A stretch of 64,000 bases of DNA from Bilabrum cf. latius. Its lineage: Eukaryota. Numbering within the stretch: position 1 is the stretch's first letter; each line of letters begins with the position of its first letter. Below the pieces are notes generated by a model. It saw only the letters and a program-made list of their open reading frames with translations, was not told the DNA's origin and did not search any database. The position numbers and the translations under genes are program-made. The DNA lies in NCBI GenBank assembly GCA_965178125.1, contig OZ237747.1:558001-622000 (forward strand), given 5' to 3'. Positions 3 through 63,999 of this stretch are shown here, piece after piece.

Positions 3-1541
3 AGCGGCCGCGCCTCCAGAAGCACCCTCAGTCTTGCGAGGCGAATCCCACTGAACAGTTCGTTGGAACGAGACGGTTTCCAATCGAGCAGCGAGGCGAT
101 TGCCGGGACCAATCATCTCCTGGACGCGCCGACCACAATGACCACCCTTTCATCCGCGCGAAAACCCGCCGGTTAGCCAACCAGTTATGTTTTGGATGAA
201 GGCAGGGACGACCCGCCAGCCGCCGGATCGATCCCCTCGACCATCGCCTCTCTCAGCCGAAGCGTGCCTGACCTGGGTCGGGTCGCTGCTGCCCTGAGAC
301 TGGCCCACGACTCGCCCGCTGTGAGCAGAGACAACCGGCGGGCCGAGCAGGCCGCCGTGGATGCGGCGACGGACGAGGTGCTGAAGGAGGAGCAGCACCG
401 GAAGAGGCGAAGGGACAGAGACCAGATTGGCTCGCGTGTTGGGGACATGATGCGGAGCGTCTCTTCGTTTGACCAGGACGTGAGGGAGTCCTTGGGGATG
501 GGTGGTGACGCCAGGCGAGGCGGGGTGTACAGGAGGTCCGAAGTGGACCATGACGACAGAGACAGTCGCGTGGAGTCTGCTGCAGTGTTCATGCGCGCCA
601 GGGCGAGGCAGGGCGCTGTCGCGAACCAGATCAGGCGTATGCTGGAAGAGGTAGAGGACGAGGACGACAGGGCAGCGGCTGCGGCCCGCGTGTCTGGGCG
701 CGCCGATGCCCCTGGTCTGGCTGCAGGTGCGCAGTCCTAGGACGGCGAGATGGAAGACGTGGCGAGGAAGATGCCTGGGCGGATGCTGCTGGATGTGCCT
801 GCCTCGGCCATCGCGGGCTCGAAGCACGCGGCAGGAAGTACCGAGAAGCGGACTGGCGATAGTGCAGGCAAGAGCACCGGCCTATCGGATCGCCAGGCGG
901 GTACAACTACTTCCGCTGCAACGTCCACCGGCAAGACTGGTGTGTCTGGCACCGCTCCGCCAGAGCAGCTGCCCACCCCGCTGACAGCCGCCGCCTCCGG
1001 CTCGACCGCCTTCAGATCCACGAGCACGATGCGGGTCGCCACACCCGATTCTCGCATCCTCGTGTGGCCGCTCAAAGAGCTCAAGGAGTGCGTGGAGAAC
1101 GACAGGTCGCTGCAGTACCCGCTCATGTCTCTCGCCGCTGCCGAAATGGCGGGTAGGCTGCAGCTGGCCACGCAGCAGATGCAGCGGGTGCACCGGTATC
1201 GCGAGCGGTTGCAACTTATGATTCGGCAGAACGACGGCACGCTTCGAGGGGCAGACAAGCGTGAGCTGGCCGAGCTGAGGGAGTCGCTCGGCGTGGCTGA
1301 TGCCGAGCACTGGGAGGCCCTCCACGCCCTGGGCTGGACCAGGAAGGACTACCAGAACGGGTACTCCAGGACGCAGACGAGGGCGGAACGGGCTCGTGCC
1401 GCGAGGAAAGCCGTCAAGAGCGTTCGCAAGTCGCTGGAGGGAGCGGTCAACAGCCTCGCGGGGCTGTTTGGCGGCGGAGGATCAGGTTCCAAAGACGCGA
1501 CCGAGGCACGCAGAGAGCAAGAATCGCCGGGGCGGCAATGA
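3..1541 (+). CDS. 5'-truncated protein of uncertain family; the C-terminus resembles the tail of protist Popeye/cNMP-binding-type proteins (tentative)
   Basis: One frame is open from the window edge to TGA 1539-1541, apart from TAG at 174 and 738, joining ORFs 192..740 and 750..1541. C-terminal motif DG...DKRELAELRESLGV..AEHWEALHALGWTRKDYQNG. Confidence 0.6.
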
Positions 1542-1677
1542 TTCTAACCGACAGTCTAGTCCTGGTGGCATCTATTGCATGTGTATATACGCGGCAGATG
1601 AGCTAAGCAGCGTGTACAATATCAACAATACAGCCATGGCTGCCAATTCCTTAGGAGCCAGCCACCGAATTTTCGTC

Positions 1678-7180: not shown

Positions 7181-9610
7181 TCACCCGCACACCCGTTCCA
7201 CACATTCTCTAAGCACATCTTCAGGAGCATCTGGAGAAGCCGCAACCCCCCCCGTTCCGGCTTCCACAGCGGCGCCGTCTCCCGTGCCTCTGGACTTGCT
7301 ACCTCCTTCTTGCAGCCACGTATGCGCCAGCCTAGATCGCAGCACCGCCCGCGCCTTGTCGCCTGCAGCTGCAACCACAGCGAGCATTAGCAGCACGGCT
7401 TGCTCCACGACATTGGCCCGGACTGCCACGCTGGCTGCTACTGGAGGTGCTGACAGGAAGCCCTCATCACCATGACTGGCGTCACCCGTGAGCTCTGACT
7501 TCTTTGCCTCTTCCCCACTGCCTGCTTCGTCTGCCTTGCCAGCGCGCAGCCTGTACAGGACCTGGAGAGTGTGCCACTCCTGAGATGCATCCAAGTCCAC
7601 GAGTGCACCCCGTTTGCGGATGGCAGCTACGGCGGTCGCGAGTGTGGTTTCTAGCAGGATGCTATCTACAAGCAGGATGCCAGGGGCACCCAGCACCAGG
7701 GCACGCAGGCCTACCAGGCCGGTTTCCACGAGGGCAGCGTCGGTGCTGTCTGCAGCCATGCCGACGAACAAGGAATGCAGGCCATCCGCATGGCGGCCGA
7801 TCCTGAAGCCGAATGATACACACAGAGCGGGTATACACGCTGCGAGCGCCCGGCGCTCCCTTCTGTTCGTGGAAAGCTTAATGGCGTCAATCAGCTCACG
7901 CGTGGTGTCATCGTAGGCCACATGAGGGGGCGGGCCCCGTAGCAGTCTCAAGGAGTCGATGTTAGCCATTGTGCACAGCGCTCTGACGCAAGGTGAGTCG
8001 CAGGCGCTTGCTCTGCGCAACGCCTCCACTATCAGCGGGGCGTAGGGCAGGAGGGCGGCATCTGCTGGCCTCATCGAGATCACTCTGTAGAGCACGCTGA
8101 CGCCAGCGTATGCATTTGCGGGATCGGAATCAACCGAGAGGCCAGCAGCGACAGAAATGCAGCACGCAATCGTCTCTTTGGTGTTCATGGAGGCTCTCGT
8201 CTGGTTGCACGCGAGCCATGCCGCCCTCCACCTCGTGTGACCGTCGTCCTTCCACGCCTTCATCGCATCCCTCCCGAGCCGTACCAGGAGCTCTGCCCCG
8301 CACAGCTCCATCAGCATGGATATGCTTGCATCCAGTGATGAACGGGATGGCAGATGCGATGCTGGTGGCTCCGCAGACTTGCTTGATTCCATTGAGGCAG
8401 CCGCTTCGCTGCTACTGGCCGCGCGTTGGCCCGCTTCTTGCGAGCCCGGGCCACCAGCTGATCCTTCAAACAACTCAGTCGGTTTATCTGCCGCATCACC
8501 ACGCACTCCTGCCGCCAGACACGCGCACCACGCGGCTCTCCTCGCAATGGAGCGGCTTCCGAATGGCGTGCGAGGCAGAGCGATCGCGAGCGCTGGAACA
8601 AGCCATCGCGCGAGCTCGCCAGCGGTCGGCCAGGCCTCTCCCGGAGACACAGTAGTTTCATTGGTAGCTGTAGCATCGATTGCTCCAATGTCAGGTAGTG
8701 TTCCACCAGCCCCGAGCCCCCTGGCTTCGAGGCACCTCCTCACTGTATCCCACGCAGCCAGCTGCAAGCCGGCCCAGACGCTCGCACCTGTAAGTCGTTC
8801 CATGGTTTCTGCCATTTCCTCATCGTTTCGATACCTCCCATCAGTCTCGGGTGGACGCTCCTCGCCTGACTACGCCACACCTTCGAACCGGGCCGACTCG
8901 CGGGCAATCGCCGCGGTGGTGCCCGGTGTCACCGCAGCACCACCGCCAGTCTTGCCGCATCTTTTGGTGCACGGAGCTCCTCGCACGTGGTAGGCACCGG
9001 CTGGACCGAGAATGTCGTGTCCCCACTCGTCATCTTGTGCCCAAGTATCCGGCCCTGCCTTCGATGCCACACGGGGTGCATGCTTGCCGTCGTCCTGCAT
9101 GGCTCGTCTCCATGCGTGGTATACCGTACTTCTGGGGGGCCTCTCCCACCACCAAGCAAGCCCATCGTCTCCAAATGCAGTGAATTCGAGAGACCTTGCC
9201 AGCAGGATTGATTTGGAAGAGTCCTCCACAGAGTGCTATGGCGCTGTGATTCGTGTGACCGCCGCTGCAACTGCGTCTGATCCTGCAACCCAAATCGCCG
9301 CTATAGCATCTTTTTCGGTGATTTTACGCCCATCGTCATGTAGTACCGTATCAAACAAATGTGATCGCAGCCTTGGAATAGGAGCAACTGACCCTGCACC
9401 GAAATGGCGTAGGTCGGGCGGTGCACCTAGCCATTCCAATAGTCTACGAAGCAGTCTGGCAGTTGGTCTTGCTCGCTGCATCAGGCAGGAAATTCGTTTG
9501 ATGATCTAGCATGATACTTCTTGCACGCACTCAGTCGTCGGGGTCCACTCATTCGGATATAATGTGCGCAGGTTTCCCAACATATCATGGAGCTCGCTAT
9601 TGCCAGCCAT
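7181..9610 (-). CDS. TTI2: HEAT/ARM-repeat protein, TTI2 (TELO2-interacting protein 2)-like, about 809 aa
   Basis: ORFs 9236..9481, 8870..9229 and 7181..8815 are in one frame, joined by TAG at 9506, 9236 and 8870; ATG at 9610. The helical region AWKDDGHTRWRAAWL...SVDSDPANAYAGVSVLYRVI resembles Tti2. Confidence 0.6.
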
Positions 9611-9807
9611 TGTGGTTTCAGGCTCGCTCTAGTATGAGGAGCCGTATGAGAGTAACAAATCGATATGGCAAGGCTGCACAGCTCTGGATGTCATTCAAAC
9701 AGACGCTTTGATTGATCCTCGGCTGGCACTTGCCGCACTGGAATGCCTCATTTAGACCGGAGCTCCGTAATTCCCACATATTGTGCCGACCTAATTTCTC
9801 GATTGCC

Positions 9808-10823
9808 ATGGCATCATCTGCAGGAAGTGCTGTTCAAGAGTCAAAAGAAGATTCCAAAGAGTCTATTGTTGCAGAGATGGCCTCTAAACTACCCGATAAA
9901 GGATCCAAGTTGCCGATCGTATTCGGCCCAGTGCATTCACGCAACGTTGGAGCTGTGCGATTGCTTGTAGACCGTGTACTACCCGTTACATACAGCGATT
10001 CATTCTGGAGCAAACTTGTGCAGGGCACGAATGCCCTGTCCGTGATGGGTAAGGCAATAGCTACGGATGCCTTATTGTTCGAATCAGATTTGTCTGGCGC
10101 CTATGAACCAGCTGTCATTGTGCATTGCTTATTATCGCAGCTTATTTGTCTGATCTTTTTGTTGGTACCATTTGCACACGACTCGAGCGGCGGCCGGATG
10201 GCAAGAATAGAGCGTACATCATGATTCTTGCTGTGCTTCCCGCATACCGAACCATCGGAGTCGGCACGCAGCTGCTCAGGAGACTGATGCTAAAAGTAAT
10301 GGGCACAAAAGATGCATCAGCGAAGGATGAGGACTTTGGTACGATTGCCGCTGGCCTGGTTGGCAAGGATGGGAAGCCGACAGCACTGTCGCTCACCAAG
10401 TCATCCGGTGCTTCATCATCAGCCTCAGCACCAGCGTCAGCACCAGCACCGAGTGGAGGAGGAGGAGGTGGTGGTCGCCGCGGTCGCCGTCGCGGTGGTC
10501 GTAAGCGAGGAGGGGGTGGAGCAGCTGCCGCGGCAGCAGGGGGGGCCGCCAAGCCCGGGTCGGCAGGCTCAGCCGCTCCGAGCGCCGAGTGCGTGGAAGT
10601 CTACCTGCACGTGCAGAGCACGAACGAGGGCGCGCGCAAGCTGTACAGGAGCGCTGGATTTGATGAGGTGAAGGAAGTGAAGAACTACTACGGCAGGCTG
10701 GAAGACAAGGACGCCATGCTCCTGCGGTGGTGCGCTCCCGGGTCGGAGCCCAGCGTGGGCACGGGTGCGGACGGGGATGCGCCAAGCAAGGCAGCTGCCG
10801 GGGAGGGCGGGGCGGAGAGCTGA
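9808..10823 (+). CDS. NAA50: N-alpha-acetyltransferase 50 (GNAT)
   Basis: VLPVTYSDSFW, intron 10049-10140, AYLSDLFVGTICTR, AYIMILAVLPAYRTIGVGTQLL, VYLHVQSTNEGARKLYRSAGF, KNYYGRLEDKDA. TGA stop. Confidence 0.9.
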
Positions 10824-10898: not shown

Positions 10899-11278
10899 TC
10901 AAGGAATGAACCACAGCACGTCTCTCGCCACCGCCCCAAAGCAGTCCGCCAGCTCAAAGGGAGCAATGAAGAGCGGGCTAGCAACCAGGGCTGTTCCAAT
11001 CTGCACCCAGAAAGCCTGCCAAGGCGCTCTCTACTTCATGCCTAGCGACATGATCGCGACCGCTGCCACGGCCTGCAGCAGGAAGAACAAGAGCTGGCTG
11101 CCACCGCAGTCGTACTGCCTGCCTCCAAGCCACGGCACCTTCCGCCCCACTGCGCTGCATAGAGCCTCCGAGAATGACCAGCCCAGAGACCCCTCCGTTC
11201 CAGGGCTCAAGTCTGGCCCGATTCCGTCCCCAACCAAGTCAGATGCAGACAGACTCTCCCCCTCTCCGCCGGACCACC

Positions 11279-11311
<33 letters not shown>

Positions 11312-12452
11312 TTACAGGTGCTGCCGTGGGCAGTTTCGAGAGCGCAACGACGCAGACGAATTCGTGCCACAGACCAGATAGTATGAAAATGGCCACGGCG
11401 GGCCAAGGGCCGTCCCTAGTACCCACCATGCCTTGCACCATCCGTCCCACCCCAAGCTTCAGGGCCTGACTTACTGGCGCATGCCAAGAGTTGCCCCAGA
11501 AACTCCCGCGCCGCAGGATGCCCAGCCACCTCTCGTTGTCCTCAGTCAGCGATGGCACAGGCTCATATACGGCCAGAACCCGCGCCACGCCATCGGGTGC
11601 CTCACGAGCTCCGATCGTTGCGACCGGACCCAGCCCCTGTCTGCAGTCAGCGCCGGGGTCTACCACATAGGTGGCCCCGGTTGCGCGATGAATATCTCTG
11701 AAGCTGCCAGCCAGCTCTTCACTTAGAGCTTCGATCGAATCGTCATCGACCGCGTCATTCGATGGGTAGGACCCGAGGGGGTGGCGGGGTGGGGGCGGGG
11801 CCCGATTCTGCCTGTCACTGTGCCGTGCTAGTTGACATTTGGTCGTAGCCTATCTGGTAATGTACTGGTGCCTGAACTCTCCACGCACCAGAATACCAAT
11901 TCTGAAGCAGCTACCAACAGGAAAGAAAAGTCCGAATGGAACCTCGACTATTGTCGCTGGTTTTTCCAGCAGGTATCCGGCAACTTGTGGCGCAGTCTGA
12001 TTTGGAGCGGTGGCTAAATGTGTATAGGCACCGAACAACACAATGAATAAGCAAATGAGGTCCTCCATAAGCGCCATAGCTGCATACAGACTTGCACCGC
12101 GGCATACAATCCATAAGCATGTCGCTGGGACCGCAAGCAAAGGAATGCCAGCCAAGCTAGCAAACGGCATAATCTAGATGGAGGACAGCCAGCTTCCAAC
12201 CAGCATGCTCAGCCGGAACACGAGAGCGTGGCAAAGAAAGCGAAATAAAAAATACATAGTATTGCTTTCGAGGTACCCTCGCCAAAAGAGGCCAGGGCAA
12301 ATGTATCGGGAACTTGATTCCGGCCGAGTCGAGCTAGTTGGCTGTGGTCTAGATGCCCGCGTAATGGTTCCCCAGCCGACCACCAAAAACACCTGCAATA
12401 TCCATCGGAACATTGTCCATGCACCGCTGCTGCCAGCAGGTGTAGATGCCAT
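10899..12452 (-). CDS. MBOAT-family (wax synthase-like) O-acyltransferase, about 517 aa
   Basis: Single frame through TAG at 12174, 11850 and 11031 to TGA 10899. Motifs SFWGNSWH and FILSGLWHE (catalytic His); multiple TM segments. Confidence 0.75.
11281..11310. repeat. (GAC)10 trinucleotide microsatellite encoding poly-Ser in the MBOAT gene
   Basis: Perfect gac repeat read directly from the sequence. Confidence 0.95.
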
Positions 12453-13098
12453 CTCAAGCGCTGTTATTTGCAGCGGCGAGCTGAGGCGCTAGCCCTCACC
12501 CGCTGTCAAGCCGCTGCAATCAACCTCCTGAATGATTGCCTAACTCTTTGAAAATACAGCAAACAGCAACCCACACAGGAACATGTGAAACGCAGCTGAT
12601 TCGTACGTCACGCAGTACACCGAGACGCACGCAGCAGTTGCACTTGAATAGAGCAAGAGAATCACGTGCGATACAATTACCGGTGCCTTTCTCCTTTGCA
12701 CAATTCGAACCAGCGAGTGAAGCATAGGAATCCATAAAGTAAAGCAAACGAGAATCAGCACACCTGCAATCATCTTGTGGCGAAGATGTGCATTGTGGGT
12801 TGGTGCACTACAGTGCACTGCACGTCACACCACGGGTGGAGTGACTTATGCTTTGTCCAATTCTTGACCTTAGTCTCCGTACCTACACCACCTCCAATCG
12901 ATAAACAATCATCGTAATGCTGCACAGGCTTCTCGCCGCCGGCCTATCGGCGCGCCGGGTCTGCGAGCGCAGCATTTCCACGCTGGCGGGCACTCTACTT
13001 GCCATCAGGCTGCCAGAGAAACAGAAAGTACATCCAGAATCCATGCCCACCACCACAATCACCGCGCGAGCACCTCGAGTCGAAACCCAAAACCCACC

Positions 13099-15238: not shown

Positions 15239-15421
15239 GTGACGACGCACGAGTTTTCGATCTGGCAGTGAATGGCACAAAGAAGCGTTTCATCCATTGT
15301 GAGGCCGACCATTCGTTGGAAATAAGCTTAATTCGTGGCGAGCCTGTCGGATTCTCGTTTGTGGACCGTGTATCGTGCAAATACAGCTTTGGGTCTCGCT
15401 GCCAGCATCAATTGTCATCAT

Positions 15422-16769: not shown

Positions 16770-17905
16770 ATGGCTGCAGTAGGCGGCAGTGCCGGTCGTG
16801 ATGAATTAATGGGATTTACTGTCAAAGAGCTTGTCACTACGCTGCGAGAAGAGGAGAAAGCAGCTAGTGGGGCAGCCGCTCGAGGCAAGAGCGTAACCAA
16901 GCCGCACAACTTGCCTCATAGGGAGACTCGGTCTCTTTTTGACAGGACCAAGGTGAGGCCTGATATAATTCTCTTGCTACTGCAATCTTTCTGTGTTGTG
17001 ACTGCGTCACAGATTTTGTCGTTGCAGCAATAATTGATCCGATTTCAAGCTTTTGGTCGTACCATTCACTTTCACAGGTGTTGTCTTCAGCCGTGAGGCC
17101 TGCTGGGGGTCATCCGCATTCTAGAATGGATGATGATGGCAGCATGGAGGTAAATGCGTTCCGACCAGGTCTGGCGACCATGCGCCCTGACCCTGGCAGG
17201 TTTCTGCTGCGCGGGGGAGGCACCGGAGGAATGGCAACTACGGCCTTGAAAGCTCGAGCCCTGAAGGCTGACAGCGTGCCTTTGAAGCCCCCACCGAAGG
17301 CAGGTGCCATGAAGATTCGGCCGAATCCACCGAACACTTCGTTGAGGTTTTACTACGAGAGGGGCGACTTGCCGTGCAAGATCAGCCAGAAGGGCGTGAA
17401 AAACAAGCTTGCCTGGAAGCAGCCGATCGATACTTTGGATTTTAATTTCTGGCTCCCTGTGTTTATGGACGGCGTCCGCGAGGAGGAGGACCCTTACCAG
17501 TTCATTGCCATGGACGGCGTCACGCAGCTGCTCGACAACGGAGGCTCGAAGATCCTCCCCACCCTCCCAGTGCTGATCATGCCCATCAAGCAGGCGCTCA
17601 ACACGAGGAGGCCGATCGTCGTATGCAGGATGATGAAGGTCCTGCAGAGGCTGGTCACCGCGGATGCGCACACGAAGCGACCAACGATCGGCCGGGCGCT
17701 TGTGCCGTACTACCGCCAGATCCTGCCCGTGTTCAACCTGCTCGCCCTCAAGAACAAGAACCTTGGCGATGGAATTGATTATGCGCAGCGGAAGGGCGAG
17801 AACCCTGGGGATCTGGTGAGCCAGACGCTCGAGCTGTTCGAGGAGTTTGGTGGGGAGGAGGCACTGGTCAACATCCGGTACCTCGTGCCATGCTATCCCA
17901 TCTAA
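16770..17905 (+). CDS. PACRG: Parkin co-regulated (PACRG) family axonemal protein
   Basis: Intron 16953-17077. Motifs LRFYYERGDLP, LDFNFWLPVFMDGVREEEDPYQFIA, GRALVPYYRQILPVFNL, NLGDGIDY, GGEEALVNIRYLVPCY. Ends in TAA 17903-17905. Confidence 0.93.
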
Positions 17906-21560: not shown

Positions 21561-21783
21561 AGGTTCTGCCCTTGGCGGCAGTGAACTTGAAATACGCAAA
21601 TGGCACCTTACCACAAAAATGGCTGCCGGGACTTTCGTCCGAGGCGAAGATCAACTAATCGTATCCGTTTTATTCCTTTCATCAATCAATACCATAGCTG
21701 TATGACCCCTGCATGCACTAGAGGTGCCAAGCAAGCAAGCGCTAAACGTTCACCTCGTCACGCACAGCACGCTCACCAGTGGC

Positions 21784-50267: not shown

Positions 50268-51642
50268 ATGGCGGCAGCTACATCGGCAAGTGGTCTCGCT
50301 ACGACCGCAGAAAGTGTCTGCAAGAAGGTCAGCGTCCATCGAGTGGTGAGGACTGCTGCAGCTCACGCATGGAACGCTGACATGACAGGTAAGAGTCATG
50401 AGTTAGTATCAATTGTCTATATTCTACGACTTTCTGGGCCCTGCATCGCTGAATGTAGCCGCACTGTCTTGCATTTCGAGGATCGCAGCCGTTGCTGTCG
50501 CTGATGGTTCCGAGAATGTCTGGATCTACGATAGAATCCGGGATACAGAGGCCGGCAAGGGGGCACCGGGCGCGTTCTAGTCGCTGAAGGATACGAAATC
50601 GTGGCGACTCGCCCACAAGCTGGAGGCACACACCCAGAGAGTTACCGGGCTCGACTGGTGCCCGATTACAAACAGGCTGCTGACTTGCTCCATGGATCGA
50701 AACGCGTACGTCTGGACAAAAGTAGACACAAAATCAGTCGTTTGGGCCAAGGGGGAGAAGGGCCAGGGTATCGCGTACACATGGAAGCCAACCATGGTGG
50801 AGTTGAACTTGAAGCGAGCAGCAACGGTATGCCGATGGAGCCCCACCGGCAAGACCTTCGCGGTGGGGGGTGGCGAGGGCGTCGTGCAGGTCTGCCACTA
50901 CGACGAGTCGGGGGACTGGTGGGTACCTGCCTGCATCGACGGCTTCCGTTCGGCAGTGCTCTCACTGGCGTACCATCCGAGCGGGCACTCCATCGCCATC
51001 TCCTCCGCCGATTCTAGGGTGAGAGTGAGCAGCTGTTTCTTGGTGGAAGCGGAGGGCGAGGGAACAGAGCAGGACGGGGGTGCATACTTGCCCGCCGAGT
51101 TCGCCACGACGTACGAAGATTTTAAGGACGGCAGGTCCTGGGCCCACGCGGTTGCCTTCTCGCCCGATGGCGCCTGTCTGGCGTGGGTGACCCACGACGC
51201 CTCCGTGTGCATCGCATCGCTCGGATCAGGGGACGGGAAATCGCCCGTGCATCAGCTGAGGCACAGGGGACTGCCGTTCACGACGCTGCAGTTCGTGGGG
51301 AGCGATGCCCTAGTGTGCGCCGGGTTCAGCTCCGGGCCAGTGCTGTACAAGCAGAGGGGCGACAAGGGCTGGGAGGAGGTAGGGTGCATCGATGGGGGCC
51401 GGGCTGCCAAGAAGAAGAAGGCGGGGGGCAAGGGCGGGAGCTTCGCGGCGAACCGGCAGATGTTTGCTGCTGCAGTGGACCTGGGCATGAAGGTCGGGCC
51501 CGACGGGGCTGCGAAGGGTGGGGCGGGCGAGTCGGAGGGACCTGCGCTCAGGCACGAGTCTGCCGTGGTGGAGCTGAGGAGCGTTCCGGGCGGCGTGTCC
51601 TCTGCTGGGGCAGATGGGCGGGTGGTTCTGTGGAAGATCTGA
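50268..51642 (+). CDS. ARPC1: Arp2/3 complex subunit 1 (p41-Arc, WD40)
   Basis: AHAWNADMT, intron 50389-50488, HTQRVTGLDWCPITNRLLTCSMDRNAYVW, WKPTMVELNLKRAATVCRWSP, SSAGADGRVVLW. TAG at 50578; TGA stop. Confidence 0.93.
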
Positions 51643-51786
51643 TATGTTTGCTGGTGATCCATGTTTATTGGCGCGTGCTATGGTACTCTGTACAGGTTCA
51701 ATCGGATGCGGACATCCTCCGGTTTGTGTTTGCTCCTCCTTCTCACTTGCAACGACTCCACGCCAACACTTTACACAACGAGCGCA

Positions 51787-53418
51787 ATGAGGCTCGCGCT
51801 GCAAGACGGATGCATTCTATGCACTGTGTTGGCTGGTCTTGCTTTGGCATCCACACCACCACCGTATGCCATCCCGTCTGATGGGCTGAACGCCTCGCGA
51901 AGCTTGTTCGTCGTGCAAGAGGCCAGTATTCCGACGGACGATGACAGGCTATTTGTCCAGTCCTTGCAGGGCCTACATGCTCGTGTGTCACCGAAGCTGT
52001 ACAGGAACATATCGAACAATGGAGCAGAGCTATGGCTACAGGAGATGGAAACGCTGTTCGGGCTGCAGTTGCGTAGTGCGCCGGGATCTGCCAAAGATAT
52101 CCTCAATCAGGGTGGAGAGCTCTCGGCACCTATCAAAGGGTATGTACTTGCAACAAACTCAAGTCATCCAGGGCCTGCAGTGCTGGCTGCAGCAGGGATG
52201 GAGGGAGCCGTCGTTGCAACCCCGGCAACTAGAGCATTGCTGGACTCGAGTGGTTTCACCATGCTGCTTGATTGCTCAACAATGACATATAGCTAGGTGC
52301 TAGACAGATTAAACGTTTCCAGCGATTCTCACCCCGAGGGGCCGTACGCAAGGCGTGTCGCGGCTCTCCAGGACGACAGCAAGAGCGCGGGATCTCTGAC
52401 CGATCTCGTGATCGCTTCTCGTGCGATCCAATGGTGGGACACCGACATGGGATCGCAGCTGTCCACCAGGGTGCTGCATTCACTGCACGATGGATCTGCA
52501 GTATTCGGCTGGGGCGCGGACGAGGGCAAGACTGTCGCCGCGATCTCGCCCGGCGGCAGCTTCGTGCACGCCTCTGACTACAGCTCCAACCTCGCCACTT
52601 TGAGCGCCTACAGGCTGCCTCCGATGACCAAGGCGCAGTCAAAGGATCCTGATCTGGCATTACAGGCCGGGAAAAAGCACACTGTCTGTTTCCTGATGAC
52701 AGATGGAGACAACTTGCAGTGGCTGCAGAACGATTTCGCCACCAACCCGCTGTGGTGGGCCAGCCCCCAGAGAGGCTCCTTCCCTCTCGGGTGGACGCTC
52801 TCGCCCGCCACCTACTACCTAGCACCTGCTCTACTGCACTACCTGCGGCGAACCGCCACCCCGAACGACTCCTTTGTCGCTGCTCCGAGCGGGGCAGGGT
52901 ACTCCAACCCGGACGTAATGGCGCAAGGCCCGGGCGGCGCTCACGCTCTGGATACCTTCTCCGATTTGACAGCGACCTATGCTGCAAACAGCGGCCTGGG
53001 GATTGTCAACGTGATCGGGCAGAACTACGACGCAGGTGCAGCGGCAGAGCTCCTCGATTCAGCTGACCTGGACGCGTTGTTCTGGTACAACTACCGCAGC
53101 TATAGCGACCTCCAGGGCAAGATCGACTTTGTGAAGACTCCGTCGGGCGATACCAAGCCGGTAATCGGTGGCAGATTCCAGCTCTGGACGGGCACGTTCA
53201 AGAACACAACCAGCTTGCTCACTGCCCTGGAATCGATGCCTGCTGACCCCTCCTCAGAAGATGGGTACTCACTCGTGCCCGTGCACGTGTGGTCGGATTC
53301 GGTGGGGCATGCCGCCGAAGTGGCCCAGGCACTCATGCAGCAGAGCAATAGGTTTGATGTTGTTCTACCTGGTGAGTTTGTGCGACGGATCCGCGCGAAC
53401 TTAGGGCCGGGCCGCTGA
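51787..53418 (+). CDS. Secreted GxGYxYP-family putative glycoside hydrolase, about 543 aa
   Basis: Signal peptide; VFGWGADE, VHASDYSSNLATLS, FLMTDGDNLQW, RGSFPLGWTLSP, SGAGYSNP, GYSLVPVHVWS. TAG at 52294 joins ORFs 51661 and 52297; TGA stop. Confidence 0.85.
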
Positions 53419-53540: not shown

Positions 53541-56500
53541 TCAGACATGTTTGCCATGAGTATCGCCAGCTGACGCAGCCGGTCCCACTGGCGGTACCAC
53601 GGGCCCGTTCAAAGGGTTCAAGAACAGCGTGGCACCCTGCTCTATTTGTCTGCCTTGTCGCGCTTGCTTGAGCGGACCTTGTGGCGACCACTCCTCGACG
53701 AGAGCTGCACGATCTACATCTGCTACATGGTATGATGCCGCCGCGTGGTTTACTGGCGGGGCAGATGAAGTATTGGAGACATCGTCGCCCGGATCGCCGG
53801 CAGCTTGGGGGATGCCAGGACCGATGCTCTCATTCCTATGCGGCGCATTACGCACCTCCCCCGGCACGAACCGCTGGATATTACCTTCTCTAGCGCGTGT
53901 CTCCCTAACTATCATTTCAACACCAGCCGAATGCCGCTGAGCGGAGGCCAGCCTAGATCGCCGATTGAGTCCCTCGATCCCCGACGTGCTCAGAAGAGCG
54001 GATACCAAATGCCGGAGCACATTCACTGCTGTGAATGCAAGCGCAAGCAGGCCAATCATGCTCACCCCGCGACGCTTCAAAGTCAGCGCCCAGATTTGCA
54101 CCACGAGCTGTACGGCGTCCTCCACGAACAGCTAGAACAAACCGAGTACCCTCACTCGATGCGATAGCTCCCGCCGAAGGGTCACGTCCTTGTCGCTGCC
54201 TGAGCTGTACAGTGAGAAAGCGGCTCGATTTCCCAGTTGACTTGTCAACAAATCGAGTGCCTTAACTCCGAAAATAGACAGAAATGCGACAGCGGACACC
54301 TCAGCAAAATGTCTAAACGTGTGGTCACGGACGCCGTCCACTGCCCACCACCGCAGCACCACCACAGCCAGGACCAAATTGATTGCAATAGATGCACCAA
54401 TAGAAGAAATTGCAACGTACACCAGTACAGGGTAGTCGCAGAGCCTCTCTCGCGTCAGCTGGTAGGCGAAGCTTGCGTCGCTCACCACGTCGAGAATCTG
54501 AAGGCCAACGCTGATTACAGTTAACGATCCAGAGAAGGAGACCCAATCGTTTATCCTAAGATAAACCCCAACACTCGGCACCAGAATTGCAATTGAAATG
54601 GCGCCGATCGTCAGGGCCCTTGCATTGACTTCAACAGTGGGGCAAGTCTACTGCCGTGACGGTACGATCCACTCACCTGGGTAGCAACGGCACGGCACTG
54701 CACTCTCAGCTCCCAGAGTGGCTACAATCTAGATACCAACGGTAGTATTAATTATATTTCTACCGCTATCAGCCTCTGCATGCTGCAGTAGCCTCTCGTT
54801 GACCAGCTGCCGCGTCCACTCCGAGGACGCGACGTTGTCGCCTGGTGTCGCTCCGCCGCCGCCGCCGAGCGGATCCTCTGCTCCCGGGCCAACAACCTCA
54901 ACCAATACTTGTACCTCTGGACTCTGGTTCGAATCTGAGTCTGGCTTTGCGCCAGCGACAGCGAGCCGATCGACCCAAGCACTGCCATCGGCAATCGAAG
55001 GCCTTGCCCGGACCTGTTGTAGCCCAGTTGCTTCCACAAGAGCCAGTGGCACACCTCGTCTTAGCGCCTCCAAGCTAGTCCCGGTTGCGCCATCATTTCT
55101 TGATGTACTGTCTTGCAGCACGCCCGCTACAGCAACTTGCATGAACACAGACCGAGTGCCAGCATCACCAGGTAAGCCGTCTGGAATGGTGCTCGGACTC
55201 GGAGATGCTGAAATGCTTGGCGAAGGAGTTGGGCTGACGCTTGGAGTCACGGAGGGACTGGCGGATGCCGACGCACTTGGTGTCGAGGATGTGCTGGGAG
55301 AAGAGCTCGGAGAAAGAGTCGGGGACACGCTCGGTGTCACAGAGGGTGTCGGGCTCGGCCTAGCTTGGTCGTCGTATGCCCACAGCTGCGTGATCCCAGT
55401 TCCGTTGCGAGCAGAAAAGTACAGCAGCTGCCTACCTAATCCAGGAGGCTCATATGCAGCAAAAGAGCCTGGCAATGAACTTTGATCTCCCGGCCAGATG
55501 TCCTGGGCCAGAAATGCGAACGGCTCTCCTGCGTAGTCATATCCCCACGGCTCCGAACCTGTCTAGCTCGAGAACGCTCTCAAATACACAACCCCTCGGG
55601 GCCCTAGCGTTACCAAGCTGGGCTAAAACATTTGGGAAAGGATAACTTGTGGGGTTGCATTCTGCTGGGCCACGTTCAGAGAAATGAGTTGGAGTGCCGC
55701 TGTCGCGGTCTCCTTGGACGCAGTGAGCACGATCGTGTCGTTGCTGACCTGCACGACACCTTTAGGTCTGAACCACCCGGATGAAGCGGGCAGCACGAGC
55801 TCTAGCGTGGGCTGAGAAGAACTGTCTGTGATGTTACTAACGACGTATAGCTCCGTCTATTGACTCCTCGCCTGCGCCTGGAGAAAGAGCCCTCGCGGCC
55901 ACACAGACAGCTCTCGCGGGGCAGACGATCCCGGTCCTGGATTCAAGTCTGCCACCATGGAGGGAAAACCCGTGCCATTGTACCAGTAGAGCTCGCGACC
56001 CTGAAAAAACGTTCGCGCCGAGAAGTATAGCCTTCCATCGAAGCTTGTAAGATCGCTTGGTTCCGAGGACCAGGAGCCCGGCTCGATGTCTGCCACCAGC
56101 GTACCAACCCCAGAGCCATTGTACCGAAACAGCTCGGTGCCGATGTCGCTTCCACCATACGCCGCAAAGTAGACAGTTTGCTGGCCGTTATTGGTCACTG
56201 TGCACGGTGCCTGCGCTCCTTCGGTGTTGTTGATGGTTGCGCAGGTTGCACTTCCGTCTGGTCTGAGGAGCCCAGCAACCCCGCATTCGTGTAGCGAAAC
56301 GCCGTTCGTGCTGGTTCTAGCACTAAATATTACTGTGGTGGAAAAATGCACCATGCCAATCGGATTTGAGCCTGTAGGACCAGGTTCCAGGTCAAGGGCC
56401 AGCCAAACTGAGTCTCCATCGCTTGCCCACAACTCGTTGCCATGCACGCCATCTTCGGCTCCGAAGAAAAGTGTGCGTTCGATCTCAACCGGTGTTGATC

Positions 56501-56768
56501 TCAATTGTATGTTTGAGATCGGTTTCGCCGCCCCGAGACGAGACGTGTTCGACAGCATCCTCGATGATGCGAGCGCGGGACAGTGCGTCGGGGTCATCGC
56601 TCTGTGCGATTCTCCTGCCATGCCTTGCGTGGATTGAGCGTCAACCGATTGAGATAATGTACCGCCCAAGCGAGAGCATCGCGCCATCACTACGCAGAAG
56701 TAAGTAGTCATGATTTGGAGTACCTGACGTACAGTGACCTGTTTGCGCTTGCCGAGGGCCATGCCCAT
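53541..56768 (-). CDS. Cell-surface protein: ELWxxDGT-repeat beta-propeller, Pro/Ser/Thr stalk and multi-TM C-terminal domain, about 1075 aa
   Basis: Repeats HGNELWASDG, GTELFRYNG, GRELYWYNG, VADIEPGSWSSEP; stalk (PSVTPS)n at about 55200-55360; TM region DVVSD...EDAVQLVVQ. TAG at 55857, 55623, 55563, 54729, 54648 and 54132; TGA stop. The start is uncertain. Confidence 0.75.
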
Positions 56769-57069
56769 GCTTGGAACAGGGATAGCCGTAGAATAAATCG
56801 AAAAATAATGATAAGTAGATGCGGACGAGGGGTAAATATTGTTAAAGTCGGCCAACATTGTTTTTCTCCCGTTGCGTCGTGCCCTGTTCCGGTTTGACAC
56901 AACCTCTTCGCCGGGCCGGCGGTGTGTTGGTTGTTTCTGCTGGGCGGTCCAGTCAGGTGTTGCTTTGTGCATTGTCTTGAATAACATTCTCCTTCTTCAT
57001 ACCTGGTGAGTGCGTGCTAGGAAAAGCATTCATGCTGATGCCAAGAGCTTCAAATGCATATCAAGCATG

Positions 57070-60000
57070 TCACTGAGGCATAACCCCAGCGCCGGCCCAC
57101 AGCTGAATCCCTGGTACCACCGCCTTGTCCGACGATGACGCCCACTCTGCAGCACCGACCGCCGTCCCCTTGACCGTAACCTCTGCAGCTCCCCCGCCCT
57201 CCCACTCAATCCGAACCGACCCTCGCATGTGCCTCGCAGAGTCACTTTGTGTTCGCGCATAGATCCAACCCGACCTGGACGCACCCGGCGCGATCGGCCC
57301 GCGGCCCAGCTCCACCCACAGGCCCGACCCGTCCGCTCGAGGCACCCTGCAGCTCCTCGCTGCGGCCCTCACCCTGAGCGGCCTCTTCGAGTGGTTCCGC
57401 ACCTGCACCCGCCTGCGCGCCAGCCCAGGAGCAGGCACCGATCCAAGGACCACCTGCCTGGGCCGTACCTCCACGACAGTGCCGCCTAACGGACCACCGC
57501 CGAGACTAGTTGCCCCTGCCCCAGTCCCAGCTCCAGCTCCAGCTCCACGGCGCTGCAGGGATCTCGCAGCTGTCAGACCCCCACCTGCAGCCCTCACAGC
57601 AGCATCCGCATCGCTCGAGGAAGTTGGAGCCACAGGGCCACCATCAGCAGTGGTCTGGCCGTATAGCGCCGCTTCCGGCTCCTCATCGCTGTCGGCCGGG
57701 AGCTGGCCCACGACGTCGCCCAGTGGCTCTGTGGGGCCGTACCGAGCAGGATCCGCGCTCTGAATGTCACGTGTTCCCTGGTCGTCACCTCCTTCGCGCA
57801 TGATTGCGGGGCGCTGCGCGGGTCGCGGCGGTCGGTCGCTAGCCACTGAAGCGAGAAGAGCTCCACTCCGACCCATGGGTGGCTGTCCGCCCCGGCGGTG
57901 CGCCTCGTATCTCTTCCTTGCCGCTCCTGTAGAGGACAGAACATGGCTGGAGGCAGCTGCTTGCGGGCTCACCACCCCGATGTGGTGCCTGCTAGAGGCA
58001 AGCTCATTGAGTGTCGGGTCACCGTTGGCTGCCTCTCGTGCGTCCTGTAGGGATGGATGGCCAGCACCCGCCAGGCCGGTTCTCGATCTCTCGTACGGAG
58101 TCTGTGCTGTGCTGCTGACAGGCGTGTTCACCCCACTGCTGCCTCGCTGTACTGCCTGCAGACCTGCCAGCTCTGCTCTCCGGAGCGTTTCCGCCCTGCT
58201 GCGGGACCCGCGGTCGGCCCGCCGGCCCGATGCAGAAGACGCCATGCGATCCGCAAGGGTGCCAGTCGCACCCACGGAGCCGTCTCGCTCAGCTGTCGTC
58301 GCCGATTCGGCCCTCGACACGAGCCTATTGATGTCCTCGGGAGCAGCGGTGGCCATGGGAGGCACTGCGAAATCTTCGTAGCCAGAGCGCATGCCAGGTG
58401 CATCGCCAACACCCCCGCCGTACTGACTCGAGCTTGCGGAATCATGCGACGCGTGACTGCTTCCCTGGAGTTGGTCGCTGTGGCTCGACTATCGCCGAGA
58501 TCCACCGTGCGCGTCACGAGGGGCTGTCTCCGTGTGAAGGGCGCCGGCTAGGTCTTGCTCCACCGTCGAAGGGGTACGCGGCCGCGGGATGGCCCCGTCG
58601 TCGTACCTGCCGGCCCTGCGGCCATCTCCATCTGAACCGGCAACACCTGGCTCTACCCACTCCTTCTCATGCATCTCTTCGGCGTCGCTTCCTGGTGAAA
58701 CGCTCGCATCCTGAGCTCGCGCAACAGGGATCCGACTAGCCGTGTTGCCGCTACCGTGCTACGTGCTAGTGGAGCCCGCTGCCGATCGTCTTGGTCCTGC
58801 AGATGTGCTAGACTAGCCCAAGACGCGAAGAGGGGCTGCCACTGCCGTCGTCTGCTCGGCGTTAGGGTGCCTAGCAGCTTTCTCCTCGGCCCTTCGCATG
58901 GCCTCTGCTCGGGTCTAGCTCTCCTGAATCCCAAGCAGTGCACCGAGTGACATGCCACCGCCCTTGTCCTCCTCGCCCGCCTGCACCTCGATTCGCACCT
59001 TTTCCTCGAACGGAAGGTCTTCCTGATCCTGCAGCTGCTCGAGCTGCTCGTCCAGTTTGCTCTCCGGGCCCTAGATACCCTTGCGGGCAAGTCTGCGGCG
59101 CTCTCGTTCGAGTTGACTGGCTTTCCTGCGACGCTCCTTTGCAGCTTGCTTGCGAATGGCGTCATCCTGCGCTTGAAGCTTGCCAACCTGCTTCCGCAGC
59201 TTGCGGCCGAATCGCGCCAGCCGCCGCCGCTGTCGTTCCACCCGCTTGGCTGCCGCAATCGCCAACGCCTGGCTAGCAGGGTCAGCATCGAGCTCTTGCT
59301 TGCTCTCGCTGTGCTGCTGCTCCTCCTCCTCTGTGACCTTGAGTTGTCTCAGTGCCTGCATGGTGGCTTCGCTCCTCTGCCTGCGCCAGTCTGCTAGTCT
59401 CTAGGCTGCAACGCTCAGCCCAATGATGGCCTCAAGCGATGCACCGGCCGAGTGCTGAGACACCGCAGTCACCACGGTCACCGTAGAAGAGGCAGAGAGA
59501 GGCTGAAGCCTGGAGGCAGCGTTCGAGTTGTGCAGCGGACAGCTGTCGGCCAGCGGCGGGGCCAAGCCCACTGGCCTTGGGCTGATTCGCTCGCACGGCC
59601 AGTCTCCATCAAGGTCATCCGCAGGCGGTGCCTCCCCAGCGAAGCCAAAGGAAGGCCTCCCCGCTCCAGCCCCGGCTCTCGTGGCCACTGCCTTTGCTGC
59701 AGTGAGCGCAAGGTCCGCCGCCCCGTCCTCGTTGCTTGATGCCTGCTGGCCCGCCCGAATGGTGCCAGCCAAGTCGGCGCCTCCAGCATTCAAGTGGCCC
59801 GTCACGCTGGGCAGTACACCGATGCCGCGCATCACCACTGGGTCCGGGCGACCAGCTGCGGCCAACACACGCCGCCACTTGCGCCGCTGTGCCTCCAGTC
59901 CGGGCTGTGCATTGGCTCCAAAGACCTCCCTCTTCGTTCCTACGCTTGGCCTCGTGGCAATCCTCGGCCGCAGCCAGCCGCCGCCAGGTGCCAGCAGCAG

Positions 60001-63000
60001 CAGCGACCCGACGTCCCTCCCATTCCTGTCGCCGCCCAGCCCGAACCTGGCGCTGCCGATCAGCTGCTCCCGCTCCGTACCCAGGATCCTCGTCCCCGCC
60101 ACTCCGTGCCCGGGAAGACCGTCCCCCGGGCTACCGCCATCCGCCACCAAAACGCCTGGGAAGCGGGAGGCCAGCACGCTCTGCAACAGCAAGAAACCAT
60201 GGCTCGAGCTGGACCCACCGGAAGCCTTCCCATGCCCATCAGCGAAGCGCACTCGTGTGGCGGTCTTGCCCCTGGACAGGCCGGGGCTGCGCAATGTAAG
60301 CGCCTGGCTACCCTGCTTGTTTCCCGGAGGCAATTGCCCCTGCCCTTCGAAGTCGGCCCTGTCGTCCACAGCTCCAGCAGTTGCAGCCGGCATGGCCACT
60401 ATCCGAGCCGCATCTACAATCGGCAGCCCCCCATGTTTGGCCACATTAGGAGTGCCCGGGTCGCAGTACTCCCGGAGTGCCGTGGCCTGCGCATCGGAGA
60501 GCCATTCTTCGGCTTGCAAACCCCCCCGACCTCCCTTTCTCTGAGTGGCTGACGAAGGTGGAAACACAAACATGCGTGGCTCCGGGGCGTCGCTAAGGGG
60601 GGGTGCCACCGTCCTGGTTCTTTGCTCGGATTCGGTGATGCCAAGGCGGGCTGCGGCAGCGATGGAGGTCTGTGAGACCTCGATGGTCCCACCAATTCTA
60701 ATCACTGGGGGTCTTGATACCTGTTCCGTCTGGGACTCGGTCCCCGCGTCGAGTAGAGATGCGCGCTCGCCCCTCGAAGGCCCCAGACCAAACGCGAACA
60801 CCGAGCTCTCATCGTCCTCCATGCGCATCCAGGGACCCGCGCCGCTCTCGCGCCACTCAGCTTCTTCCTAAACGTCAGTGGACGACGTGCCGGCGTCGGA
60901 AGCCACCGGCACCCATCCCAGCATGTCAAATGCCACCGTCCCTGCCGACCGACGAGAGGCTGCGGCGCTTGGCTCGTCTGTTGTGGGCGCGTGCTCGGCG
61001 GTAGATTCCGTGCCGTTGGCAACCCCGCCCACTACTCTGGCGTCTGCACCGCACCCGCGGCCCGGGGGTCGCACTACCCATATCCCGTCATCACCCCCTT
61101 CCAGCACGCCACCGGTCGCCCACATGACGCGTGCCGCCCAGCTTCGATTCGCCACGCGGCTGCCGCTCCAATCGCAGCAGATGCGGTCAAGGAACGGGGT
61201 GGTGACCACGCGCACAGTTCTCCTCGGCCCGCCAGCCGCAACAGCAACGTCGGGAGGGATCCGGGCTCCAGTGGCCTCGCAGCTGGAGGCGATCAGCGCA
61301 ACTCTCGCAGCCTCTTCGTCGGTCTCAACGCACAGGCCTGCCGTTCCATCTGGCAGCATGGGGCGGCTAGCGGAAGCGGGGCTCCCCGGTGCCCCCATGC
61401 CGGGCGGCGCCCTGGTCCACAGCGTCCTCCACCTGACGCGAGCCGCCTCGATGCCCAACCGAGCCTCTTCCTCGTCCTCGTCCTCGTCGGCCAGACCATC
61501 TTCGTCTACACCTTTCTTTGCACGGCCATGGGTGCCCTTTTTGCCCGCATCAGCAGCACCCGTGATCACTTCCTCCCTAGTAGGGTATCGCGCGACCACC
61601 GTGCCGCACCCAAATGCGCAGCCACTTAGACCGCCCCTGTCGCCCACACCCCACGCAACGACCCGCCCAAGCTGCCCAGTGGCAGTTCCGCCCGAACCAG
61701 GAGCCAGCACCCAGCCAAGACGAAGTGCACGGGACTGCAATTCGTTCGCCACCGCACGCGTCCCACCCTCAGTTGCCATAGTGGCTGCGGTTGCCCCGCT
61801 TGCAGCACCAGCACCAGCAGCATCCGCCGTCTCCCTTGATTCAGCTACACCCGCTGCTGTCGGGGTAACCCGGGATTGCGCACCAGCCGACTTAGCATCT
61901 GGGAGCACCAGCGCCCCCACTACACCAACAGGCGTTCCATCCTCATCAGCGGCTGCACCAGTGGCAACTCCTCCCCGCATGCGCACGTCAAGCTGCGCCC
62001 TCTGCAATTCGATCGAGATCTCGCGTTCCTGCAAAGCCCGGGCGTTTCGAGCCTTGCCGAATCGCGGCTTTGGTAGCTTTGCGATCGCATCTCGGGCCCT
62101 GGCTGCAGCCCTGACGGCTTTGACCGCGCCTGGGTCGGGCACGGGGCATCGCTCAAGCCTTGTAGCCACATCCTCCGAACCGGATTGCACGAAAACAGGA
62201 ACCGAGGGCAGCTCCGTTTCCGCTACCACTGCGCCGCTCGGGCCATCGTCGCAGCGCTGCAAGGTCCTGGACCCATTGGGTGCCGTCACAATCCAGAAGC
62301 CCCCAGTACCGCTGCTTGCCGCGGGCTCAGAGCCCGGTGCAGCGCTATCTGGCAGCCACCAGCTTGTCGCTCCGGACCGGTAGAGCACGCATCGTAGGCC
62401 ACCAGCGAACGAACGGACGCACGTGTTCCCGCTACCCTGCAAAGGGAAGCGCACGGACGTCTCCACAAGCCACTAGGGCCACCGGCACGACCTTGCGTCA
62501 ACAGCCTAGGACAGCTCAGGGGATGGCTGCGCTGCCGCCTCGGCCGCATGCTCCATGGCTCTTGCCGTTTGCTTGCGGCCGATCACAGACCGCAGGGTGC
62601 TTTCCAAGGCCTCGCCGCGCCGAGCCGCGAGCAAGTGCTGTTGCAGGCGCTGCCGAGCGGTCAGACTAGATGCATCTGCGACCGACCGGGGTACCCACGC
62701 GATGCTCCCATTCGCATCCATGTGTATGCGACAGCCGCCGCCGTACTGCAGAGACAGGTCCCAGCTGCCATCTGCCCTCCGTCTCGTGCTGGGCGTCTTG
62801 CCAGACGCCTTGACGCGCCCAAGGAAGTCCCTTCGGCTTGCTTGGCTGCTCACAGACAGCAGTGCCGGCGGCCTGCCGAGCCCCATGGTTGCCCCTGCCG
62901 GCGCCCTGGCTATCGCAGCCAGCTCGATTTCGCCGCGCAACCGTCGGCCGGGGTGCTGGCTGTAAGTGCGCCTGATGGCGTGTTCCGTCTCGAGAGTGCC

Positions 63001-63999
63001 GGCCTCGCCGTCGCCGGGCCTGAACAGCGTCAGCTATGTCCTGTTTTCACTGTCCCTGACACCGGGGCTTGTGCCGCCCTGGCTGTTTCTGCGACGGAAT
63101 CCGAGCACACCGAAGGGGGCGCTCATGGTTACATTGCGGCCGATGAGCCCGCCTTGCCTGCCCTCGGTGCATTCGATCTGCACGCTTCCTGCAGCGTGCA
63201 TCCGCCACTGCTGCTGCTCCAAGCCCTAGATTGCCTCGGATGGCAGAGATGACACCAGCAAGCAGGCCGGCGACGGATTTGATGCCTCGGGCGTCGCGGG
63301 TCCACGACTGCGAGCACTCTCGCTTGGCTCACCGCTGGCTACTGAAGGTCGCACGCGCTGCCACACAAGAGCCTCGAGAACACGCTTGTACTGCTCAGCA
63401 GCAGCTGCCAGCCTCTTCTCAAGCTCTGGGTCAGTCTTCTCTGCAACCGCCTTGCCCTTTCCTTTGCCTTTCCCCTTTCCTTTAGGTTTGTCAGCCTCTG
63501 CCCTTTCCTGCAGCTCCGCAGCACCGGGCAGCCCGGCAGCTTCATTTGCATCCTCCTTGGCCTTAGCAGCAGCCTCCAGCAATGCATCCACTCCCTCTAT
63601 GGATCCAAGCTGCTACAGAAATACTCTGTCTTGCTCTAACGTCTCTTGCGCAAACGCGCTCGCGGATGTAGCCATGCCTCGAAGGAGAACAGCGGAACTG
63701 CCGGGACCGCCGCGCCTTTCCACGCGGGCGCGTGGCACCGGCTTGTTCGCTACCACAATCGCGCTGCCGGTCAGCGGCTCGCGACCCACATCGATTCGCC
63801 ATCCCTGCGATCTCAGCGCCGCGATCTCCGACAGTACCCCCCTGCGGGTCAGCCTACGTCGGTGGGACCGGAGGCACAGAGGCACCTGAAAGGCAGGCGC
63901 ATCCTTCGCAGCCTTGGCCTGGTGCGCTACCTGCCGCGCAGCAGCTGCGTTGGCGTCGAGTGGGATGATGCCCCACGGCCGAATCCTCCGGGGCCCCAT
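57070..63999 (-). CDS. 5'-truncated protein of more than 2300 aa, SPAG17/PF6-like flagellar central-pair protein (tentative) with a C-terminal PapD/ASH-like domain
   Basis: One frame from the window edge to TGA 57070 with 12 TAG (63613, 63226, 63034, 62506, 62473, 60868, 59401, 59071, 58915, 58813, 58759, 58489). Beta-hairpin DG/NG repeats; C-terminal VRPRQVVLGSV...VQVRNHS...GPIAPGAS. Confidence 0.65.

Follow-up and report, generated by a model that had tools for sequence, protein, structure and literature searches.

The subject of this work is a 64-kb stretch of DNA from Bilabrum cf. latius (64,000 nucleotides, positions 558,001 to 622,000 of contig OZ237747.1; hereafter the window), and in particular the codon TAG, which recurs inside the reading frames of its genes and very probably encodes glutamine (Gln) there. 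The window has a GC content of about 59% (55-65%), and its genes are densely packed on both strands (Table 1). Our gene models comprise 22 open reading frame (ORF) segments, which make up 21 genes and 17,318 codons. Conserved genes of this TAG-bearing region that have homologues in Pfam or the PDB include those for methionyl-tRNA synthetase (MetRS), S-adenosylmethionine decarboxylase (SAMDC), ARPC1, PROPPIN, PACRG, a peptidase S9, a GxGYxYP protein and a large folate-receptor/VWA/Cache protein (VWA/Cache below). The presence of the axonemal protein PACRG indicates a flagellated organism, and an initial annotation of this DNA, made from its letters alone, had likewise spoken of a flagellate.

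When both strands of the window were searched with TAG taken as a sense codon, the longest ORFs reached 2330, 2309, 1681, 1190 and 1151 amino acids, against a longest ORF of 674 amino acids with standard stops. As controls, TAA taken as sense gave again 674 amino acids and TGA taken as sense gave 844, and codes in which either of these is the sense codon were ruled out by this test. TGA is the commonest stop triplet on the two strands (1628 copies, with 1026 of TAG and 452 of TAA), yet ORFs lengthen little when it is read as sense. The gene models hold 93 in-frame TAG codons in 15 of the 21 genes, a density of 5.4 per 1000 codons, and no in-frame TAA or TGA, an absence that follows from the way the ORFs were built; when these segments are read in their other two frames there are 50 and 62 TAA, 317 and 329 TGA, and 131 and 136 TAG. 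From the 5' to the 3' end, successive tenths of the genes contain 12, 14, 11, 11, 10, 5, 9, 7, 6 and 9 TAG codons, an even spread with no depletion toward the 3' ends, and at positions -1 and +4 the context of TAG shows no striking bias relative to that of CAG. The ratio of CAA to CAG in the window genes is 143:474, and if TAA stood to TAG in the same ratio about 28 in-frame TAA codons would be expected; since there are none, TAA is not a codon for Gln or any other sense codon.

The initial annotation had counted about 90 TAG codons in 17 of 24 genes, on both strands and across the whole window, and its number of codons agrees with ours, as does its statement that in-frame TAA and TGA are absent, but its gene tally does not. 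Two of its examples were recovered exactly, with 13 TAG codons in 34553-41491 (counted over 34553-41488) and 12 in 3605-7096 (counted over 3605-7093). The 21 TAG codons given for VWA/Cache become 20 in our spliced model; the 21st counts only if the frame that lies open ahead of the first ATG is coding. In a looser set of models there are 95 TAG codons in 17 of 21 segments, and the two additional ones, which lie upstream of the duplicated arm of an aldose 1-epimerase gene, are probably non-coding. Three ORFs without family matches and antisense to supported genes (19146-20693, 21706-22857 and 17090-18148) were dropped, as were five unsupported ones (2021-3124, 33445-34080, 47062-47802, 22904-23440 and 16584-17030).

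The second line of evidence comes from contigs of four sequencing runs, which were compared with positions 18000-37999 of the window as contigs and not as raw reads. The run X1, of DNA type, contains the whole stretch, and 49-86% of the sampled words are present in the runs X5, X6 and X7, of which X5 and X7 belong to one study and X6 to another, both distinct from that of X1. Contigs of X5, X6 and X7 contain joints at which 90-360 nt bounded by GT..AG on the strand of the gene are left out, four of these joints lying in MetRS, two each in epimerase copy 1 and the GLOD4-thioredoxin gene, and one each in VWA/Cache and the 5' region of the TmcB-like gene; none of these joints was present in X1. 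Because of these splice joints we treated X5, X6 and X7 as transcript-derived. The spliceosomal introns, together with eukaryotic housekeeping genes, rule out a bacterial or phage origin of the window. There are 32 in-frame TAG codons in the compared region, of which the contigs of X1 cover 32, those of X5 29, those of X6 20 and those of X7 12. The listed pieces of X5, X6 and X7 show no other letters and no gaps, with the sole listed coding differences, at 29816 and 29825 in one X7 contig, falling in AAG and CCG codons and not in TAG. A single X5 contig (27896-32080), also free of other letters, spans 17 of the 20 TAG codons of VWA/Cache. Transcripts with CAG at these sites had been named initially as a sign of editing; the contigs keep TAG, and no change from T to C was reported at any covered TAG in this region. 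In view of the ORF lengths and of the unchanged TAG codons in spliced, transcript-derived contigs, it is virtually certain that TAG is a sense codon in this genome.

Table 1. Genes and introns of the window, with positions counted from its first letter
Feature	Position	Strand	Remarks
ORF open at 5' end	3..1541	+	no family match; 2 TAG; TGA stop
Peptidase S9-like, 1163 aa	3605..7096	+	Pfam Peptidase_S9; 12 TAG; TGA stop
837-aa ORF	7181..9694	-	no family match; 4 TAG; TGA stop, then a second TGA
GNAT acetyltransferase exon	10107..10823	+	begins mid-domain, upstream exon likely; 0 TAG
Multi-pass membrane protein ORF	10899..12773	-	5 TAG; TGA stop
SAMDC (eukaryote-type)	13099..14658	-	2 TAG
DHDPS-family gene	15332..16588	+	0 TAG
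PACRG, axonemal	16964..17905	+	Pfam ParcG, E 2e-63; 0 TAG
MetRS, EMAP-like C-terminus	18096..21538	-	5 exons; 892 aa from first ATG; 2 TAG; TGA stop
MetRS introns	19064-19423, 20664-20779, 21019-21117, 21329-21435	-	GT..AG joints in X5, X6, X7
Aldose 1-epimerase copy 1	21655..23302	-	0 TAG; introns 22876-23031, 23101-23222
Aldose 1-epimerase copy 2	24170..25384	+	inverted duplicate of copy 1; 0 TAG in duplicated arm
GLOD4-like glyoxalase + thioredoxin fusion	25596..27900	-	0 TAG; introns 27403-27509, 27567-27656
Folate-receptor / VWA / Cache protein, at least 1655 aa	28063..33400	-	Pfam; 20 TAG; TAG-TAA end; intron 32998-33210
TmcB-like TPR/PAS membrane protein, 2312 aa	34553..41491	+	13 TAG; TGA stop; 5'-region intron 34250-34352
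PROPPIN (WIPI/Atg18-like)	41701..44004	-	3 TAG
FAR-17a/AIG1-like membrane protein	44287..46773	+	5 TAG
MFS transporter	47999..49807	-	4 TAG
Arp2/3 subunit ARPC1	50398..51642	+	2 TAG, in poorly conserved N-terminus
GxGYxYP putative glycoside hydrolase	51661..53418	+	1 TAG
1148-aa protein	53541..56987	-	weak XK-related match; 6 TAG
2309-aa ORF, runs off the window	57070..63999	-	no family match; 12 TAG; TGA stop

In order to identify the amino acid, all homologue searches were run with X at TAG, so that the query could not favour Gln. P0001, a metagenome homologue of VWA/Cache (1628 amino acids, 59% identical), has Gln at 7 of the 15 aligned TAG sites, Glu and Ser at two each, and Asp, Gly, Lys and Tyr at one each. 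At the ordinary CAG and CAA sites of the same gene P0001 keeps Gln in 22 of 40 cases, and 7 of 15 therefore matches what would be expected if TAG encoded Gln. Under the substitution pattern of this alignment the log-likelihoods for VWA/Cache were 8.28 for Gln, 1.65 for Lys, 1.49 for Glu and 0.75 for Ser. The TAG at ORF residue 420 of MetRS corresponds to Gln in the human enzyme (5gl7) and to Asp in two others, and TAG 761 of the peptidase corresponds to Gln in the homologue P0006. With the best homologue taken at each site, our own tally gives Gln at 9 of the 20 informative TAG sites of the window; the two TAG sites of ARPC1 lie outside the aligned region, and the C-terminal TAG of MetRS lies outside the alignments shown.

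A scan of JGI metagenome contigs yielded two loci, L001 and L002, from two metagenomes, each encoding an orthologue of the N-terminal part of VWA/Cache at 46% identity. The in-frame stops in these orthologue alignments are all TAG and fall at four distinct sites, where the window has Gln, Gln, Leu and Thr. The longest ORF of L002 measures 2026 amino acids with TAG as sense, 487 with standard stops, 487 with TAA as sense and 539 with TGA as sense; the ORF of 2026 amino acids encodes the C-terminal half of a heavy chain of axonemal dynein, with 13 TAG codons. Its columns were scored against 120 full-length homologues, the best of 1724 matches, and 11 of the TAG columns were well covered. Gln dominates four of them (110/115, 77/113, 77/113 and 101/111), Lys two (51/112 and 85/119), Pro two (33/109, nearly tied with Ser at 32, and 46/110) and Ser one (46/112). 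Since 41% of the true Gln columns of this query have a Gln majority, four of 11 is as expected for Gln codons. The log-likelihoods were 4.63 for Gln, -6.45 for Asn, -11.46 for Ser and -14.25 for Glu, and in a calibration on 11 randomly drawn columns at a time, all of one known residue, 496-500 of 500 trials gave back the true residue. TGA terminates each of the two complete ORFs in L002 (2/2). Public protein collections also hold short ORFs, P0004, P0005 and P0007, which are fragments of the peptidase from one or more close relatives and are 74-88% identical to it, and P0007 stops exactly one residue before TAG 469 of the window. These data show that at least one related metagenomic organism shares the trait of having TAG as the only in-frame stop. 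The assignment of TAG to Gln in the initial annotation is supported by both likelihood tests, in the window gene and in the dynein of L002, and by the Gln of human MetRS.

We read the window as nuclear DNA from a eukaryote that is flagellated, rich in GC and poor in introns, and in which UAG is read as Gln, UGA is the terminator and UAA is a stop or unassigned, and we put the probability of this reading at roughly 0.88. Several observations weigh against it or against one of its parts, and they are given here with the alternatives on which they bear. Of 20 gene ends, TGA accounts for 19 and TAA for one; this sole TAA end is the TAG-TAA of VWA/Cache (28063-28068), so that TAA as a working stop is seen at a single gene end, directly after a TAG. 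The gene for the MFS transporter ends in TAG-GTA-TGA (48002-48010). Thus two of 20 genes have TAG as their last or penultimate sense codon, whereas the overall density predicts about 0.2 such genes, and it could be proposed that the code is ambiguous, with UAG encoding Gln inside genes and also acting as a terminator near the 3' ends of some mRNAs. Context-dependent codes in which a codon is both stop and sense are found in Condylostoma and in karyorelict ciliates, and Blastocrithidia provides a case for UAA. We consider an ambiguous code unlikely here, as TGA or TAA terminates every gene and TAG does not thin out toward the 3' ends, and the two terminal cases fit equally well as relics of TAG terminators that are now read through to a back-up stop. 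The terminal TAG codons may be such relics, or they may reflect a residual terminator role; with this caveat, the earlier claim that no gene needs TAG as its terminator stands. UGA is the working terminator, and close to the sole one, and TAA is a stop or unassigned and is kept out of the frames.

If UAG is read as Gln throughout, it would be decoded by a tRNA-Gln with the anticodon CUA, since no other anticodon reads UAG without also reading UAA; such a tRNA is one mutation away from tRNA-Gln(CUG) (PMC5304391). The N-domain of eRF1 would in addition have changed in such a way that recognition of UAG is lost or weakened and recognition of UGA is retained, and efficient reassignment is usually accompanied by changes in this domain (PMC5304391). 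By analogy with known codes we think this mechanism likely. No tRNA genes were found by ARAGORN in the window, L001 and L002 (77 kb in all), nor was there any Rfam match at the gathering threshold in these sequences; eRF1 is not among the window genes, and neither it nor tRNA-Gln(CUA) is present in the 77 kb searched. This would also fit a code that has no dedicated suppressor tRNA, in which the near-cognate tRNA-Gln(CUG) reads UAG since eRF1 ignores that codon, all the more as the responsible tRNAs are unknown for most variant nuclear codes according to PMC5304391; the 77 kb are, however, the only sequence in which tRNA(CUA) was sought. Near-cognate reading is nevertheless improbable in our view, since TAG would account for 93 of about 700 Gln codons in the window models and for up to 20 in one gene, and since lineages with UAG or UAR as Gln for which genomes exist, namely Tetrahymena, Condylostoma and Spironucleus, are described in the same source as having tRNA-Gln(CUA).

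It is also possible in principle that TAG is a sense codon for a different residue, such as Glu, Lys, Leu, Ser or Tyr, and a number of single sites can be cited in support of this. TAG residue 149 of PROPPIN corresponds to Leu in human WIPI2, TAG residue 246 of SAMDC corresponds to Lys in the human enzyme, and TAG 783 of the peptidase corresponds to Lys in P0005 and Asn in P0006, while the remaining two of the 11 well-covered TAG columns of the L002 dynein are dominated by Glu (109/120) and by Asp (85/100). Moreover, the window's own support for Gln comes mainly from one gene and one homologue. However, in VWA/Cache as compared with P0001, Gln is ahead of the next residue by 6.6 log-likelihood units, both Lys and Glu falling at least that far behind, and in the L002 dynein it stands 11 units above Asn and 19 above Glu in a test whose calibrated recovery is at least 99%. 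No residue other than Gln dominates more than two of the 11 dynein columns, against four for Gln. An assignment to any other residue is accordingly very unlikely.

We infer the RNA origin of X5, X6 and X7 from their splice joints; the records do not state RNA, and the run-typing label for X5 is 'probably DNA'. Nonetheless, nothing was found in favour of the view that the TAG codons are not translated at all, whether owing to errors of sequencing or assembly, to pseudogenes, to introns that were missed or to U-to-C editing. This view is excluded as far as the contigs can show and can be given almost no weight, because the frames are interrupted by TAG alone and never by TAA or TGA, X1 and the three spliced-contig runs from two other studies are identical at the covered sites, the transcript-derived contigs pass through the TAG codons unspliced, L001 and L002 have TAG-only in-frame stops at other orthologue sites in independent metagenomes, and a fragment with 74% identity breaks off immediately in front of a TAG of the window.

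The UAG-to-Gln reading can be compared with the nuclear codes already described. Reassignment of UAG alone to Gln is listed in PMC11687900 for Iotanema spirale, for Protocruzia tuzeti and, twice independently, for phyllopharyngean ciliates; the list of such lineages in the initial annotation agrees with this one, which adds Protocruzia tuzeti. The same source lists UAG as Leu in the rhizarian exLh and in a ciliate, UAG as Ser in Scotinosphaera, UAG as Glu with UAA as Lys in the ciliate PL0344, and UAR as Gln (NCBI table 6) in many ciliates, Hexamita, Streblomastix, ulvophytes and Amoeboaphelidium. In Iotanema spirale the nuclear code has UAG as Gln with UAA and UGA as stops, and eRF1 carries the change T32G; UAA stayed the dominant stop both there and in exLh (PMC5304391). 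The window resembles Iotanema spirale in that only UAG is reassigned, and to Gln, in that UAA is not a sense codon, and in the same predicted combination of tRNA-Gln(CUA) and altered eRF1. It differs from it in its stops, as UGA and not UAA stands at 19 of 20 gene ends, and in its nature, since Iotanema is known from a fornicate transcriptome whereas the window belongs to a GC-rich, intron-bearing genome with a TAG-sense relative that groups with stramenopiles.

The phyllopharyngean ciliates and Protocruzia tuzeti also read UAG alone as Gln, but the window differs from them in its GC content, its GT..AG introns of 90-360 nt and its long contigs, the longest X1 Logan record measuring 212 kb. 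Ciliate macronuclear genomes typically look different from a GC-rich, intron-bearing genome assembled in long contigs. The UAR codes of table 6 share with the window the reading of a stop as Gln, and differ in that TAA is here found 0 times in 17,318 codons. In exLh, Scotinosphaera and PL0344, as in the window, UAG is decoupled from UAA, but the residue is here Gln. Phages in which TAG is Gln (code 15) use the same codon table, whereas the window is nuclear DNA of a cellular organism, in which housekeeping genes and spliceosomal introns are found. The codon table is therefore of the known NCBI table 15 type, and what differs is the lineage, the GC-rich intron-bearing genome and the use of UGA as the main stop.

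Whether the code change has been described before in this lineage is a separate matter. Full-text searches, with subscription journals and supplements outside their scope, found no description of a code with UAG as Gln in stramenopiles or in other flagellates that are neither ciliates nor fornicates. The suggestion in the initial annotation of an independent and possibly undescribed reassignment is plausible in view of this, of the genome unlike that of ciliates and of the relative on the stramenopile side, but it is not proven. We believe that the change is probably of independent origin and common to the clade seen in the metagenomes; that it is truly undescribed has slightly less than an even chance.

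In order to place the relative, a tree was built with FastTree (LG+gamma, midpoint root) from 38 of the 120 dynein sequences and 1993 columns. The dynein of L002 groups with unnamed metagenomic sequences in a clade that adjoins a group with the labyrinthulomycete Hondaea, among stramenopiles and apart from Chromera, Vitrella and Plasmodiophora. As the tree concerns a single protein from a single relative and paralogy is a risk, a stramenopile affiliation is to be taken as a lead and not as a result, and the window itself is tied to L002 only by the 46%-identical orthologue and the shared code. A tentative extension of these results, to which we give somewhat less than even odds, is that they come from an undescribed clade of GC-rich heterotrophic flagellates, probably deep-branching stramenopiles, with a change of UAG to Gln that is independent of those in fornicates and ciliates and with UGA as nearly the sole terminator; such a clade would occur in data sets derived from cultures and in two or more environmental metagenomes, and the TAG-TAA ends would be fossil terminators. 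The closest named homologue of the L002 dynein (64%) is P0154, a dynein labelled Symbiodinium sp. KB8 that lies within the unnamed clade on the stramenopile side, and its source may be a contaminant flagellate in a dinoflagellate culture.

Nuclear codes that give UAG and UAA separate meanings are very rare, with about half a dozen lineages listed in PMC11687900. A further case bears on the question of why UAG and UAA are almost always coupled, and of how eRF1 drops one stop and keeps the others. The present one has three advantages: sequence data for genome and transcripts are available, the GC content is high, and the main stop that survives is UGA instead of UAA. It could thus provide a new independent test of the model that combines tRNA(CUA) with a changed eRF1. 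It also has a practical side, as annotation with the standard code fragments such genes, and public collections already hold fragments of this kind (P0004, P0005 and P0007); gene catalogues and metagenome bins of the clade will be wrong until table 15 is applied.

A number of other features of the window and of the related loci can be mentioned. The two copies of the aldose 1-epimerase form a head-to-head inverted duplication (21747-22881 and 24170-25421) with arms 95-97% identical, at which the X1 contigs break. Between the divergent VWA/Cache and TmcB-like genes, at 33857-34190, there is a unit of about 310 bp that is flanked by direct repeats of 21-22 nt and includes a near-perfect hairpin of about 70 nt at 33987-34057. 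Several X1 contigs match this unit apart from variant letters, and the summed depth of words rises abruptly there, which suggests a dispersed repeat, perhaps MITE-like; matches to miRNA families were sub-threshold only. The search with the TmcB-like protein (2330-amino-acid query) gave no match at E 0.001 among 8000 scored candidates, low-complexity words having probably crowded the candidate list. The gene at 25596-27900 on the minus strand combines a GLOD4-like double glyoxalase domain with a C-terminal thioredoxin in one protein of 680 amino acids.

The architecture of VWA/Cache is unusual, with two folate-receptor-like cysteine-rich domains placed before the alpha2delta-like VWA/Cache body. 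This architecture is common to the window, P0001 and L001/L002 (10001-10408 in L002), and the next-best match in a large protein collection is 27% identical. The P0001 model begins at a Met directly after the site of the in-frame TAG of L001/L002 (query residue 105) and is without the N-terminal folate-receptor half, as if an in-frame stop had cut the prediction, yet its 1628 residues are uninterrupted. At 6962-9052 on the plus strand of L002 there is also an ORF of 696 amino acids, coiled-coil-like and without a Pfam match, in which 11 TAG codons make up 1.6% of the codons, a density higher than that of any window gene.

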